A stretch of DNA of 64,000 nt from Candidatus Dadabacteria bacterium (lineage in GTDB: Bacteria; Desulfobacterota_D; UBA1144; Nemesobacterales; Nemesobacteraceae), in contig CATOTB010000006.1 of assembly GCA_951812945.1 (NCBI GenBank), forward strand, positions 6,696-70,695, given 5' to 3'. Each line of letters opens with the position of its first letter. The stretch's first letter is position 1. Positions 11,381 through 35,225 of this stretch are shown piece after piece. The notes under the pieces were generated by a model. The model had not been told where the DNA came from, did no database searches, and saw nothing but the letters and a program-made list of their open reading frames with translations. The position numbers and the translations under genes were made by a program.

Positions 11381-12652
11381 TCAATCGGCAGTCTCAATCC
11401 GAAAATCTGCGGAAAGCAGTCGCCAGTGTTCTTTGAGTTGTTCTTTGTGAGCGTGATTCGCGGGCAGGTCACCAAGAGATTTTGGCCAGAGAGAACGCGC
11501 TTTATCCAGTGTATCGTCAAGCTGCGGTTTAATGGCTTTCCAAGGAATATCGGCTTTATTGGCCCAGGCTCTGAAATGATCAAAAGTGATTTTGTACCAA
11601 TTCTTGTTTCCACCCAAATTTAACGCATACTCCCTTTCATCACCCATATAAACACGAGTGATCACGATATCGTATGCGAGGGAAAGTTCGGGAGTAACCG
11701 TGTCGGGATAGACCAGAGACCAGTTTTTTAAATGCGCATCACCATTGGCTAGAAGAATGTTAGTCAGTAATCGTCGGGCGAATTGCTGGACGTTTTTGAG
11801 GCCGTCGCCAGTGTACTGATAGATGATCTTACCTATCTGTCCGTAATTCGGACCGTCGTACTTTTGCCATGAGTACTTAGCCAGAACCTGGGCGAAGTCT
11901 TCGGTGTGAATGCGTTGTCCATCCTTGCGGTCAAATCTTCGTATGGCAAATGCGAATTCTTCGTCAGGGAGACTTATGGCGGGGAGTTTATCGAGAGCGT
12001 CCACTTTAACCAAACGGGTATCCGGTATATCAATTCCCGCTTTTTGCGCAAGCCGCATGGCGGTGAATTCGTTTAGGGGAACGAGTTTGTGTCTGGTGGA
12101 CGGGGTTTTGATAATCCAGTCCCCAAGATTTCCAGATTCAGCAATCCGGTAGCGTCCATCCCGTTCCCGCATCGAAAATTTCATTTGTACGCCGGCAAGA
12201 GAAAAATGTTTTGCATCACTCTGCATATTGGCTTTAATGACTTTTGCCTTGGGAGTTAATACGTAGTCGGGAACATCATCAGGTTCTGTGGCGGTGACGA
12301 TTAGAGCTCCAGGAAGATCTTGCCCAAGGCTGGCGAGCAGTGCGAATTCATTATCAATATGAATTTTCAGATATTGAGCCAGCAATTCTCTCAATACTCC
12401 TTCGGGCAGCAGGTTGGAGAGCACAGGGTGCAGCCGTTGTCTCCTTGACCAGGGTTTTGCGAGCACCTTTTTTACGTTAGGAAAATCTGGATGCGTTGTC
12501 AGAGTGAAGGTCGGTCGCGAACTGTTACCTGTAAACTCGGGCGCAAACGTAAGGGTGCTTCGACCGTCCTTATGGCCCGTCAGATATCCGACCTTTGTTC
12601 TGTGCAAGGTGAGTTCTAAAACATGGATTTGTTCTGTGCCGCTCACGATCAT
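11381..12652 (-). CDS. hipA: HipA-family Ser/Thr kinase toxin
   Basis: NLLPEG, SLAGVQMK, IIKTP, NEF, RRFDR, HTEDFAQ, NGDAHLKNWS, AYDI. ATG 12652 overlaps the antitoxin stop (ATGA) and has a GGAGG RBS. Confidence 0.95.
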   Translation of the reverse strand: MIVSGTEQIHVLELTLHRTKVGYLTGHKDGRSTLTFAPEFTGNSSRPTFTLTTHPDFPNVKKVLAKPWSRRQRLHPVLSNLLPEGVLRELLAQYLKIHIDNEFALLASLGQDLPGALIVTATEPDDVPDYVLTPKAKVIKANMQSDAKHFSLAGVQMKFSMRERDGRYRIAESGNLGDWIIKTPSTRHKLVPLNEFTAMRLAQKAGIDIPDTRLVKVDALDKLPAISLPDEEFAFAIRRFDRKDGQRIHTEDFAQVLAKYSWQKYDGPNYGQIGKIIYQYTGDGLKNVQQFARRLLTNILLANGDAHLKNWSLVYPDTVTPELSLAYDIVITRVYMGDEREYALNLGGNKNWYKITFDHFRAWANKADIPWKAIKPQLDDTLDKARSLWPKSLGDLPANHAHKEQLKEHWRLLSADFRIETAD

Positions 12653-12966
12653 TCCTCCAGCAGCCCTTCCCAAGGATCATCGGGAGGAGGGTCCGCAGCA
12701 AGGCCAATATTAATTCTAGGGCCGGAACCTATATCGGTTCTTTCTTCCAGTATGTCGCGAACCAAGCGCAGTTTTTCCTGCGGGATAAGCAGTACCTCCA
12801 TCCTAAGCCCTTTGGCAACCAGTTCAAGAGTGTCCAAGCGTGGGTTGCCCTTGGATTCCAGCCGCTGATACTGCTGTCTTGGCATACCGACGCGCAGCAT
12901 CATATCTTTTTGTTTCAGGCCGAGTTCCTTTCGACGGATTTTAATCTGATCGCGTATTTTGCTCAT
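12649..12966 (-). CDS. hipB: HipB-like XRE helix-turn-helix antitoxin
   Basis: IKIRRKELGLKQKD...QYQRLESKGNPRLDTL; directly upstream of hipA. Confidence 0.88.
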   Translation of the reverse strand: MSKIRDQIKIRRKELGLKQKDMMLRVGMPRQQYQRLESKGNPRLDTLELVAKGLRMEVLLIPQEKLRLVRDILEERTDIGSGPRINIGLAADPPPDDPWEGLLEE

Positions 12967-27869: not shown

Positions 27870-29186
27870 ATTTGAGCGTATACTATCTTACCTACCAATC
27901 ATATAAAATATGACAAATGACCAAAGAAGTTCGCTCGGTAGAGTTCGTTGTCCTGCCCACAAGCAGGGCGAAAGCGAGGAAGATGTTTCGGGTAGCTGGA
28001 GCCTGCAGATTTGTATGGAACCATTTCAGGAACAAGAACCTTGAGGACTACCAGAAATTCAAAAAAGGTAATGGGGACAGGCCGTCTGTCAGCCACTTCA
28101 GTCTCGGGGTGGAGTTCACCAAGTTTAGGCATGAGACGGATTGGCTTCGGGAACTTCCCGCAAATCCGGTTAAATACACCCTTAAGTATTTAGCGGATGC
28201 CTTGAAACAGGCAATACAAGGCAAAAAGGGATTTCCGAAGCCGAGAAGCAGAAAAAAGACAGCACCTAGCTTTACGCTTCCCGACACGGCCAATTTTAGG
28301 ATAAAGAAACTAGACAGAAAATACGGTTTCCTCCGCATTCCTTTGATTGGTTGGGTGAAACTCACACGCAAGGGAGGCAATCTTTGGGAAAACGGTGTAC
28401 CTAAGCAGGTGGTGCTTCGCCATGATGGACGGAGGTGGAGGGCTTTTGTCTTCTATGAAGTTGAAGTGGAAGAAAGAATGGACGACGGCGAGGTTCTTGG
28501 CGTTGATATGAACGTCCGCCAGGTTGCCACTTCGGACGGACATTTTTACTTTCTGCCGGATTTAAATAAGAAAGAAGCGAGAAGGATGTGGTATCAGAGA
28601 AGGATGGCGCGACAGGTCAAAGGTTCAAACAGGCGGAAAGACACAAAAAGGAAGCTTGCGAAGGTAAGCAGGAAAATCGCCAACATACGTAAAAACTGGA
28701 TTCATCAAACTACCCATGAGATTGCGGAGAAATGCGGAACCGTCGCGATAGAAGATCTAAATGTTAAGGGCATGACCGCTTCCGCAAAAGGAACTGTTGA
28801 GAATCCCGGGAAGAACGTAAAGCAGAAGGCGGGGCTTAACAGGGTAATACTTGATACCGCTTTCGCAGAGATAAGAAAAAAACTGGAATACAAGTGTGGG
28901 AGACTGATTGAAATTAATCCCGCATACACAAGTCAGACTTGCTCGGAATGCGGACATACGGATAAGGAGAATCGCAAAACTCAATCGCGGTTCCGATGCG
29001 TTTGCTGTAGTTTTACGTCCAATGCGGACACGAACGCCGCAGTAAACATACGGCGTCTGGGAATGGCGCAACTGCACGGGGAGGGTACTGATATTAGCAC
29101 GGTCCCTGCGAACCGTGAAATTGATACGAGGCCGGTCAACTAATGGCTAGCATTGTATATAATTCCCAGTTATAGTCATGCTTCAA
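27870..29186 (+). mobile_element. non-autonomous IS200/IS605-like element (tnpB only); boundaries approximate
   Basis: No tnpA: only 68 bp separate tnpB from the divergent thioesterase. Hairpin 29149-29182 followed by TCAA (29183-29186). Confidence 0.55.
27917..29143 (+). CDS. tnpB: TnpB RNA-guided endonuclease (IS200/IS605 OrfB)
   Basis: GACRFVWN, GFPKPR, RuvC-I GVDMN, RuvC-II AIEDL, zinc finger TSQTCSECG...FRCVCC, RuvC-III NADTNAAVNI. Confidence 0.95.
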   Translation: MTKEVRSVEFVVLPTSRAKARKMFRVAGACRFVWNHFRNKNLEDYQKFKKGNGDRPSVSHFSLGVEFTKFRHETDWLRELPANPVKYTLKYLADALKQAIQGKKGFPKPRSRKKTAPSFTLPDTANFRIKKLDRKYGFLRIPLIGWVKLTRKGGNLWENGVPKQVVLRHDGRRWRAFVFYEVEVEERMDDGEVLGVDMNVRQVATSDGHFYFLPDLNKKEARRMWYQRRMARQVKGSNRRKDTKRKLAKVSRKIANIRKNWIHQTTHEIAEKCGTVAIEDLNVKGMTASAKGTVENPGKNVKQKAGLNRVILDTAFAEIRKKLEYKCGRLIEINPAYTSQTCSECGHTDKENRKTQSRFRCVCCSFTSNADTNAAVNIRRLGMAQLHGEGTDISTVPANREIDTRPVN

Positions 29187-33235: not shown

Positions 33236-33324
33236 TTCGGACGGTTTTTACATGGTGGTGGTAAGCCGAAGTTTCCGAGAAAAATTACTCTTTGCAAATA
33301 TCATAAAGGAGGATCAAATCCGAA

Positions 33325-33894
33325 ATGGCTGTTGTTGAGACGAGTCGTTTTCATAAGGGGATGAAGATCGAGACCGAAGGGGCGATCTGGGAGATAGTTG
33401 AGTACAAGCATTCTAAGATGGCGCAGAGAAGCCCGATAGTTACCGCGAGGCTCAAAAATATTGCTACTGGAGCCGTCAGGGAAATGAAATTCCGCGCTGG
33501 AGATACGTTTAACGTTCCCGACATCCAGAAAAGGACGATGCAGTATCTCTACAGGGACGATTCAATGTTTTACTTCATGGATTCTGAAACTTTTGACCAG
33601 TTCCCGTTCAATGCGGACATAATAGGGGACACTGTGAAGTTTTTAAAAGAACAGCAGGAAGTCGTCGTTCAAATGCACGAGGGAGAACTCATAGGCGTGG
33701 AGCTTCCCACTGCAGTTGTCTTCGAGGTTACGCACACGGAACCCGGAGTAAAGGGAGATACGGTTTCAAGCACTACGAAACCGGCGACCATAGAAACCGG
33801 AGCGGTGGTTGCCGTCCCTATTTTTATTAATATCGGGGACATGATAAAAGTTGATACCAGGAACGGGAATTATCTCGAAAGGGCGAAATCCTGA
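33325..33894 (+). CDS. efp: translation elongation factor P (atypical loop)
   Basis: MQYLY, YFMDSETFDQ, TEPGVKGDT, KPATIETG, VPIFI, VDTR; AAGGAGG RBS. Confidence 0.96.
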   Translation: MAVVETSRFHKGMKIETEGAIWEIVEYKHSKMAQRSPIVTARLKNIATGAVREMKFRAGDTFNVPDIQKRTMQYLYRDDSMFYFMDSETFDQFPFNADIIGDTVKFLKEQQEVVVQMHEGELIGVELPTAVVFEVTHTEPGVKGDTVSSTTKPATIETGAVVAVPIFINIGDMIKVDTRNGNYLERAKS

Positions 33895-33923
33895 GCTAAG
33901 ACCGCCCGATTGCTAACCACGTC

Positions 33924-35225
33924 CTATTTTCCGAAAGGGTCCTCAAGTTCCGGGTGCCAGAGTCTGAAGTGTTCTTTGTGCAGGTCGTGGTATGAGTCTT
34001 TCTGGAAGTACTTGTCGTAGAACTCAAGATCGAGATGGTGGGCCTGGAATACCAGCCGAACGAACATCGGGTCAAGAAAAGCCGGGAATCTTCCGTAGTT
34101 CTCATGCACATAGGTGCAGAAATCCTTTACTATCTGTATCCTGACTTCGGAAGGATGGTATTCGTCGCGCAGGATCGAGGCGGGATCTCTGTAGGGAAAC
34201 GGGTTGTCTTCCTTCCAGAACTCCCCTCTTACTTCGAGAAATTTATCAACCGCTTCGCCCATGTCCGCCACGTAGGGAGGGCAGAGGGATTCGAAAACTC
34301 CGTCTCTTCCGACGGGATAGGGCGGATTGGTGCTCCGAAGACTTTGCTCCGGCTGGACGAACCGGAACCCGAGTCCCTTGTGGGAAGGGTCTAGCCCGAG
34401 GGCGTAATGGGGCAGCAGTCCCGTAAATGTCCAACCTCCGAGACCCAGAGCCTGCAGCGCGAGATTCATGTTCTGGCTTATGAAGGCCTGTTCCACGTTG
34501 AGCGTGGTCAGCACCCTTAATTCCAGATCAAACAGAGAAAGCCTGACGTCGTTTCTGATGTAGCCTTTTTCTATCCATTTATCAAGACCGCACGACCTTC
34601 CCCCGTTGAGTTCGTCAATAATGTTAAAACCGTACTTGGACCCAAAATATATGAACAGAAGCACCATGTACTCAACGGTGGTATTGGTCACCGGGATGAA
34701 AAAGCTTGTCCCCGGTTTATTGGTGTTCCAGGCGTTAAAGTCAAAAAGGCCGGGCTCTCCTTTGGGAAGATCCGCTCTTTGGTCCTCAAGGGTAATTCTG
34801 CTTGCCCTGAAAAGCTCAAGTATTTTTTCAAGCTGTTTTTCCCTATCAAGTGACATGAAGATCGAGGTGTCGGGGGGCATTAGGTCAAAAAGCCGTACCA
34901 TGTAGACCCCTTCGTCATTTGTGTAGAAAAGCTCGGTCGAATGGGAGTTGCAGGAGCACGGCCAGCTTCTCCCCGTCCACTGGAAAAGCCATGATATGCC
35001 GGTTCTTGGAAGGTCTCCCAGGGAGAGACCCGTGGTTCCCGTGCCCGCCCAGATCAGGAAAGCCTCTTCAAGTTCGGAAAGCGGAACCGGGTCATGAGAG
35101 GAGCTGTAAGCCAGATTCCCCTCGGGAATTTCCATGCCGAGGCCGAAACGCCGCGATCTTCTTGAAAATATGGAGTCCAGAAGACTGAAGTTTATGGCTT
35201 TCTCAAAGCCTTTGGGGATTTTCAT
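33924..35225 (-). CDS. uncharacterised nitroreductase-fold (FMN-binding) protein
   Basis: N-terminal RRSRRF and SQNMNLALQALGLGGW resemble nitroreductase-superfamily motifs. Confidence 0.6.
   Translation of the reverse strand: MKIPKGFEKAINFSLLDSIFSRRSRRFGLGMEIPEGNLAYSSSHDPVPLSELEEAFLIWAGTGTTGLSLGDLPRTGISWLFQWTGRSWPCSCNSHSTELFYTNDEGVYMVRLFDLMPPDTSIFMSLDREKQLEKILELFRASRITLEDQRADLPKGEPGLFDFNAWNTNKPGTSFFIPVTNTTVEYMVLLFIYFGSKYGFNIIDELNGGRSCGLDKWIEKGYIRNDVRLSLFDLELRVLTTLNVEQAFISQNMNLALQALGLGGWTFTGLLPHYALGLDPSHKGLGFRFVQPEQSLRSTNPPYPVGRDGVFESLCPPYVADMGEAVDKFLEVRGEFWKEDNPFPYRDPASILRDEYHPSEVRIQIVKDFCTYVHENYGRFPAFLDPMFVRLVFQAHHLDLEFYDKYFQKDSYHDLHKEHFRLWHPELEDPFGK

Follow-up and report, generated by a model that had tools for sequence, protein, structure and literature searches.

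Background

The described types of elongation factor P (EF-P), the factor that rescues ribosomes stalled on polyproline, are distinguished by which residue occupies a short loop's tip, position 34 in Escherichia coli numbering. Among 1166 catalogued EF-Ps this residue is lysine in 81.11%, arginine in 14.75%, asparagine in 2.23%, methionine in 0.77%, glutamine in 0.6% and alanine in 0.51% (Volkwein 2019, PMC6544042; here and throughout, statements on published work refer to the accessible portions of the sources cited). Glutamine is also among the tip residues listed by Sieber et al. 2024. The present study concerns an efp gene with a glutamine codon at this place, located in a stretch of 64,000 nucleotides (the window) of contig CATOTB010000006.1, from a Candidatus Dadabacteria bacterium (assembly GCA_951812945.1). 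Members of this lineage are uncultured, sponge- and sea-dwelling bacteria. A literature search, whose coverage did not extend to subscription journals, turned up neither a publication that deals with the EF-P of Dadabacteria nor functional work on a naturally occurring EF-P with a glutamine tip.

The closest described proteins are the Gln-tip EF-Ps of the Volkwein catalogue, in which Q34 never occurs together with Pro32. Dataset S1 of that study lists Thermodesulfovibrio yellowstonii YP_002248247.1 (M32/Q34), Caldimicrobium WP_068516673.1 (V32/Q34) and Elusimicrobium WP_012414903.1 (K32/Q34); for none of these three rows, out of roughly seven (a figure calculated from 0.6% of 1166), is EpmA, EpmC, EarP or YmfI recorded (PMC6544042). 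The window protein resembles them in its seven-residue loop, in having a residue other than proline at position 32 and Gln34, and in that no EpmA or EarP was detected in its lineage (the EarP search being without a positive control); with the T. yellowstonii protein it shares both M32 and Q34. The likeness is one of tabulated residues rather than of sequences. The catalogued proteins differ in being table entries without a functional study, and neither Dadabacteria nor a conserved Arg35 is mentioned in the accessible part of the source.

A second related group comprises the arginine-type EF-Ps without a known modifier, of which 206 from 14 phyla have been reported (Brewer et al. 2026, PMC12931083). 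In E. coli, one of these, from Deinococcus radiodurans (M32/R34), restores both growth and the translation of diproline (PP) in the absence of a modifier. Like the window protein, this EF-P and that of Thermus thermophilus (L32/R34, PDB 1ueb/4v6a), which matches the window protein with an E value of 7.7e-44, belong to the Pro32-less branch and have no known modifier. Their loops are of the form K-[MLI]-G-R-x-G-A, and K-M-G-R-M-G-A-type loops of this orphan arginine kind are also found in seven genomes of the class to which the window belongs. They differ in that Arg34 itself occupies the tip and is flanked by glycines, whereas the window protein has Gln34 at the tip followed by Arg35, with alanine and serine in place of the glycines.

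Function without modification is also known from the PGKGP lysine-type EF-P of Actinobacteria (Pinheiro 2020), in which the contacting residue is put in place by the sequence of the loop, as may also hold for the window protein. In that type the lysine tip lies between two prolines, whereas the window loop has neither a lysine tip nor P-G-K-G-P. Unmodified lysine EF-Ps have been engineered (Tomasiunaite et al., preprint). EfpL (YeiP) is likewise unmodified and combines the three-domain EF-P fold with an arginine near the tip; its loop is longer than seven residues with an R tip and it exists beside a primary EF-P (PMC11611912), whereas the window loop has seven residues and belongs to a sole copy. 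About half of bacterial genomes carry EF-Ps outside the known modification classes (PMC13602936, a 2026 review; PMC11388002).

Results

A single EF-P with glutamine at the loop tip

Judged from its sequence features, the window efp (Table 1) is probably the single, functional EF-P of the Candidatus Dadabacteria bacterium and a member of the Pro32-less branch. Its most likely mode of action is one without modification, in which Arg35 reaches the P-site tRNA and Gln34 plays a supporting part; the probability of this reading is put at roughly 0.55.

The identity of the protein as an EF-P is established by its three domains, by its score against the TIGR00038 model and by a loop of seven residues that keeps the register of the solved EF-Ps. 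Each of the three Pfam domains of EF-P is matched above its gathering threshold (EFP_N PF08207, residues 6-62; EFP PF01132, 70-123; Elong-fact-P_C PF09285, 131-186). The NCBIfam equivalog TIGR00038 (efp) is matched with 234.2 bits (cut-off 185.8) and NF001810 with 237.8 bits (cut-off 161), while the EfpL/YeiP models remain below their cut-offs (NF003392, 130.3 versus 216; TIGR02178, 119.2 versus 264.05). The best PDB matches of the protein are EF-Ps, with E values down to 5e-54 (phmmer). In an alignment of 52 sequences, G144 of the domain III loop motif never varies, and conservation is at least 90% for D145 and T146.

A BLASTP alignment with the EF-P of E. coli K-12 (NC_000913.3) extends over 188 residues with 38% identity and no gaps, and places E. 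coli K-P-G-K-G-Q-A on K-M-A-Q-R-S-P, so that Lys34 corresponds to Gln34. The sequence-only reading of the window had put glutamine (CAG) at the Lys34 position, with MAQR replacing PGKG and with F9, G12, K14, I15, G19 and K31 coinciding between the two proteins, and this alignment bears it out in each respect. The loop region is also free of gaps in the phmmer alignments to the EF-Ps of PDB entries 1yby, 6rji and 6rk3. An AlphaFold2 model computed from the 52-sequence alignment (mean pLDDT 87.5) has strands at residues 20-30 and 38-45 (DSSP); since the strands end at 30 and resume at 38, the loop comprises residues 31-37 with Gln34 at its centre. The output of the model consisted of secondary structure and confidence.

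The Gln34 codon is conserved and efp is under purifying selection

Relatives of the window were found at 39 loci in species-representative genomes, the best of them (L001) on a closed chromosome of 1.59 Mb and 99% identical. At the 35 orthologous loci (the window and L001-L034), codon 34 specifies glutamine in 34 cases, 33 times as CAG and once as CAA; the remaining locus has arginine (CGC). Over the same loci the flanking codons of the loop vary synonymously with the residues unchanged (AAG/AAA, GCG/GCC/GCT/GCA, AGA/AGG/CGC, AGC/AGT, CCG/CCT/CCC/CCA). For the whole gene, the ratio of nonsynonymous to synonymous substitution rates (dN/dS) between the window and L002, L005, L019 and L032 is 0.035-0.068, synonymous sites being saturated in the comparisons with L022, L024, L025 and L026. 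The gene is thus under strong purifying selection. Contigs from two other public runs (X2 and X10) span the loop, with no difference listed within positions 33354-33585. Contigs from two RNA libraries (X15 and X16, which are equally large and may be the same data under two entries) span positions 33795-33958 only, outside the loop, and do not show transcription of efp.

The lineage also appears to retain a need for EF-P activity. Starosta and colleagues reportedly found in 2014 that the proline triplet of ValS depends on EF-P. ValS keeps the sequence I-P-P-P-N-V-T-G beside its HIGH motif in five of five relatives; because this PPP motif is retained, EF-P activity is probably still needed. A PP motif occurs at this place in 99.8% of ValS proteins (Brewer and Wagner 2024, PMC11388002). 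The 59 open reading frames (ORFs) of the window contain 34 PP and three PPP motifs in 19,512 residues.

One efp per genome, with an arginine at position 34 or 35

Statements about whole genomes are based on relatives of the window, among which L001/G001 is the nearest, with 99% identity in EF-P, and on a survey of the 119 species genomes (G001-G119) of the taxonomic class of G001 (Candidatus Dadabacteria). Each of five closed relative chromosomes yields one efp match. In the class, exactly one efp is present in 115 of the 119 genomes and none in four; no genome has two, which removes the possibility, left open by the sequence-only reading, that a canonical copy elsewhere accompanies an inactive one here. 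The gene is retained by all 19 genomes of about 1 Mb (G101-G119).

The efp stretch of the 115 genomes was read through the loop by tblastn and, one gene being truncated, 114 loops were obtained. The commonest are KMAQRSP (39 genomes), KMAQRSA (28), KIAQRSP (11), VMQQRSP (8), VMQARKP (7), KVAQRSA (5), VMQQRAP (4), KMGRMGA (3) and KVAQRSP (2); KMGRQGA, KMGRMSS, KMGRMSA, KMGRSGA, KVAQRGP, KMARRSA and KVAQRRP occur in one genome each. Position 34 is Q in 99 loops, R in eight and A in seven. Arg35 is present in 107 loops and the other seven are K-M-G-R loops with Arg34, such that all 114 have an arginine at position 34 or 35. In the seven V-M-Q-A-R-K-P proteins, Q34 has been replaced by alanine with Arg35 kept. 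Arg35 is therefore more conserved than Gln34 across the class. The clade of the window itself flips between K-M-A-Q-R-S-x and K-M-G-R-x-G-x loops.

The genomes G101-G119, of 0.8-1.1 Mb, carry loops of the form V-M-Q-Q-R-[SA]-P or V-M-Q-A-R-K-P, with efp lying among prs, L25 and pth. K31 is replaced by valine in the loops of all 19.

Glutamine tips in other phyla

When the loops of the 120 nearest database proteins were compared, Q was read at the tip in 79, R in 40 and K in one, and 78 of the 79 Gln-tip proteins have Arg35, P0013 being the exception. In a quick maximum-likelihood tree the Dadabacteria-type proteins form a single clade with a support of 99; its 24 rows comprise 15 with Q, eight with R and one with K at the tip, and the proteins with K-M-G-R-M-G-A loops are nested within it. 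Deep support in this tree is weak (12 of 92 inner branches are starred), and beyond the starred clade it allows no inference on the number or direction of Q/R changes.

A wider survey drew on 50%-identity representatives of 1.84 billion proteins and covered the nearest 150, of which 142 had a readable loop. The tip residue is K in 89 of these, R in 33, Q in ten and N in six, with single others, and a multiple alignment gave similar counts. The other Gln-tip loops are K-M-Q-Q-R-A-P, K-M-Q-Q-R-T-P, R-M-Q-Q-R-K-A, R-T-A-Q-R-K-P, R-T-A-Q-R-R-A, K-I-A-Q-A-R-A, R-K-S-Q-A-R-A and R-S-S-Q-S-K-G. An R or K follows at position 35 or 36 in all ten Gln-tip representatives and in the 52 of 52 cluster members read. 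Source names on these clusters are SAR202/Dehalococcoidia, Patescibacteria, Elusimicrobiaceae and an unclassified proteobacterial metagenome-assembled genome.

The known modification systems do not fit

The window EF-P has neither lysine nor arginine at the tip, where Gln34 is followed by Arg35. It departs from the lysine type modified by EpmAB(C) in having M32 and Q34 instead of P32 and K34, and from the lysine type of the YmfI (5-aminopentanolyl) pathway, with its lysine tip and a proline two residues before, by the same two residues; the glutamine tip also sets it apart from the arginine type modified by EarP.

A search of the genome for other efp copies and for epmA and earP, which the sequence-only reading had proposed, could be carried out on the relatives. 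In the five closed relatives EpmA gave only matches below the cut-off (at most 246 bits versus 286.9), all to ORFs of about 500 and 600 amino acids, the sizes of LysRS and AspRS, and EpmB gave none. EarP (PF10093) was found in none of these five and in none of the 119 class genomes; the model also had no match in 14 control genomes, so its sensitivity is unverified. The earlier statement that the window lacks epmA, epmB and earP agrees with scans of its ORFs (48 against NCBIfam, 16 against Pfam and efp against both), among which no family of these types was matched. The gene content of the window is one of ordinary housekeeping genes.

Genes around efp

No enzyme gene next to efp is common to all subclades in the neighbourhoods of the window and its relatives. 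In the clade of the window, MutL lies upstream, and a conserved, convergent gene for a hypothetical protein of 433 amino acids and Fur lie downstream. In other parts of the class, MutL, a SIS protein and a CysG_N-like NAD-binding protein precede efp in that order, with an ECF sigma factor also among the neighbours; in the genomes of about 1 Mb the order is the CysG_N-like protein, efp, prs, L25 and pth.

The CysG_N-like protein (PF13241, about 205-220 amino acids) is encoded upstream of efp in a number of further subclades, at L173:4370-4993, L179:3656-4309, L028:4693-5358 and L031:5047-5709. In the small genomes and in L031 its gene immediately precedes efp, and in L028 and L179 one or two small ORFs separate the two. 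In L173, a genome of about 1 Mb, the end of the gene runs a few bases into the start of efp; in the clade of the window it is not beside efp.

The 433-residue protein has no Pfam, NCBIfam or PDB match and is unusually conserved, with about 95% identity where MutL has about 86%, and 79% in L028 where EF-P has 62%. Look-alike clusters in a protein atlas consist of hypothetical proteins of several phyla, one cluster having 16% nitroreductase members. It was considered as a modifier of EF-P and dropped, as its family extends to phyla that lack Gln-tip EF-Ps.

A gene for a deoxyhypusine synthase (DHS)-like enzyme belongs to the gene content of all five closed relatives (PF01916, about 260-319 bits) and of 112 of the 119 class genomes, among them 18 of the 19 that measure about 1 Mb. 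A strong, full-length match is found in 98 of 106 genomes with a Q or A tip versus two of the seven K-M-G-R genomes, of which three have weak matches (about 145 bits) and two none. In five relatives the gene (for example L054:1426-2490) adjoins a class-I aminoacyl-tRNA synthetase gene and not polyamine genes.

Table 1. Coordinates of efp, its functional elements and other features within the window
Feature	Position	Strand	Remarks
efp, complete EF-P gene	33325..33894	+	189 aa plus stop; only EF-P type found in the lineage
Seven-residue β3-β4 loop K-M-A-Q-R-S-P, codons 31-37	33415..33435	+	Ungapped alignment with E. coli K31-A37; DSSP on model
Gln34 codon CAG	33424..33426	+	Position of the modified Lys34/Arg in other EF-Ps
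Arg35 codon AGA	33427..33429	+	Most conserved loop residue of the lineage; proposed operative residue
G144-D145-T146, conserved domain III loop motif of EF-P	33754..33762	+	52-sequence alignment
AAGGAGG, putative Shine-Dalgarno-like element	33306..33312	+	12 nt upstream of the efp ATG; read from sequence
Gene for 433-aa hypothetical protein	33924..35225	-	Convergent with efp
TnpB-like gene	27917..29143	+	OrfB_IS605 and Cas12f1-like TNB domain
ORF of 198 aa	47490..48083	+	Directly upstream of tolB
HipA N-terminal-domain protein (430 aa) and preceding 105-aa ORF	11384..12966	-	Possible HipBA-like toxin-antitoxin pair

Other features of the window

Three further loci were noted. The TnpB-like gene lies between a thioesterase gene and a gene for a hypothetical protein of 420 amino acids; it is absent at that place in the 99%-related L001, and a distant TnpB-like ORF occurs there in L011 and L013. 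The ORF upstream of tolB gives matches of about 46 bits, below the cut-offs, to IscB and Cas9d models. The 105-residue ORF preceding the HipA-like gene overlaps it.

Discussion

Arg35 as the proposed operative residue

In the proposed mechanism, the loop of the lineage would have changed from K-M-G-R-x-G-A to K-M-A-Q-R-S-P, which would leave the arginine one position past the geometric tip and glutamine at the tip. Arg35 could then do the work of Lys34 or Arg34 by contacting the P-site tRNA, the amide of Gln34 might add hydrogen bonds or shape the loop, and ribosomes stalled on polyproline would be rescued without any of the four known modifications. We know of no EF-P pathway that can modify glutamine. 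Arg35 is proposed as the operative residue because the constant feature of the loops is one arginine at position 34 or 35, and we infer both that the protein is unmodified and that this arginine is the contacting residue. A register shift bringing Arg35 into use had been among the suggestions of the sequence-only reading. The use of Arg35 fits the conservation of the loop, with R35 in 107 of 114 cases and R34 in the rest; a shift in the register of the strands does not, as the alignment is ungapped and the loop of the model symmetric with seven residues.

Several observations weigh against this interpretation. Both the alignment and the AlphaFold2 model place Q34, and not R35, at the centre of the loop. 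A close relative, P0013, has the loop K-V-A-Q-Q-S-P with no arginine at position 34 or 35. The K34Q variant of E. coli EF-P is inactive, as are K34A, K34M and K34N (PMC6544042), and a glutamine tip is thus not tolerated in every loop context. Unmodified EF-Ps and EF-Ps modified by an unknown pathway look alike in genomes (PMC12931083), and the negative EarP result counts here with the reservation attached to it. Sequence data alone cannot decide among a modification-independent class, the use of Arg35 and an unknown modification, the three possibilities that had been raised at the outset.

Alternative explanations

An undescribed modification of Gln34 or Arg35, for example methylation of the glutamine amide by an enzyme encoded elsewhere, would constitute a fifth way of activating EF-P and is conceivable, if unlikely. 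The GGQ motif of release factors carries such a glutamine amide methylation and offers an analogy for Gln34. The strong conservation of Q34 (99 of 114 class loops and 34 of 35 loci), in spite of the inactivity of K34Q in E. coli, speaks for this explanation, as does the finding that roughly half of bacterial genomes have EF-Ps of unknown modification class (PMC13602936; PMC11388002). Against it stand the three gene contexts of efp, beside which no candidate enzyme is conserved, and the switching of position 34 between Q, R, K and A among close relatives, which is hard to reconcile with a residue-specific enzyme; the seven genomes in which Q34 has become alanine keep R35. It is rather improbable that Gln-tip EF-Ps of different phyla share an undescribed activation chemistry on a conserved Gln-Arg pair, either amide methylation of the glutamine or a new arginine modification, with the enzyme not encoded beside efp.

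A weakened factor is improbable. According to this explanation, the Gln-tip EF-P would aid polyproline synthesis little, and the cells would use other rescue factors (ABCF proteins such as Uup or YfmR) or, being slow growers, tolerate slow translation. The inactive K34Q variant is in line with it (PMC6544042), as are some orphan arginine-type EF-Ps that barely function in E. coli and backup systems known from other bacteria, among which Uup is named (PMC12931083). The strong purifying selection on the gene, the conservation of its loop, its persistence as a lone copy in all 19 genomes of only about 1 Mb and the preserved PPP motif of ValS all argue against such a weakening.

It is very improbable that the DHS-like enzyme, a constituent of the core genome, acts on EF-P, whether it targets a lysine of the loop itself, for example K31, or works by way of a polyamine, which would make the Gln-tip loop dependent on it. 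This proposal can draw on the near-general presence of the gene in the class, including its small genomes, on the frequency of strong matches in Q- and A-tip genomes relative to K-M-G-R genomes, and on the DHS-like genes noted alongside Lys- and Asn-tip EF-Ps (Volkwein 2019, PMC6544042). The association is weak, since probably only one or two evolutionary events underlie the K-M-G-R genomes. In the 19 small genomes, most of which keep DHS, valine stands in place of K31. DHS chemistry needs a primary amine, which neither glutamine nor arginine offers. Moreover, SpeY, a DHS-like protein of the bacterium Anabaena, is a homospermidine synthase (PMC10385936), and two of the three catalogued Gln-tip organisms, Thermodesulfovibrio and Caldimicrobium, have no DHS in Dataset S1, where Elusimicrobium does (PMC6544042).

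Finally, that the Gln codon arose from an error in sequencing, as the sequence-only reading had cautioned, or in assembly, or that it belongs to a decaying copy, has virtually no chance of being true and is ruled out by its recurrence in 34 of 35 loci, by the independent contigs of other runs, by a dN/dS far below 1 and by the standing of the gene as the sole efp of the relatives; nothing was found in its favour.

Conclusions

The Gln-tip loop type is rare, already in print and uncharacterised, and the Dadabacteria protein adds another case. The novelty claimed for it by the sequence-only reading was overstated, glutamine tips having been tabulated before (Volkwein 2019; Sieber 2024), although the survey of MAQR- and MQQR-type loops suggested there did prove productive, with Q34 in 99 of 114 class loops and more cases in other phyla. 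What the present analysis adds is scale, namely a whole class of 119 genomes, including very small ones, that relies on this loop type, together with the rule of an arginine at position 34 or 35. Since none of the known enzymes acts on glutamine, the Gln-tip type is the cleanest test case for EF-Ps of unknown activation, and the existence of cultured organisms with such an EF-P (Thermodesulfovibrio, Caldimicrobium and Elusimicrobium) makes the question directly testable. If undescribed chemistry were involved, it would represent a fifth EF-P activation pathway. If the rule of an arginine at position 34 or 35 holds true, it would relax the textbook need for lysine or arginine exactly at the tip and would help in the design of modification-free EF-Ps.

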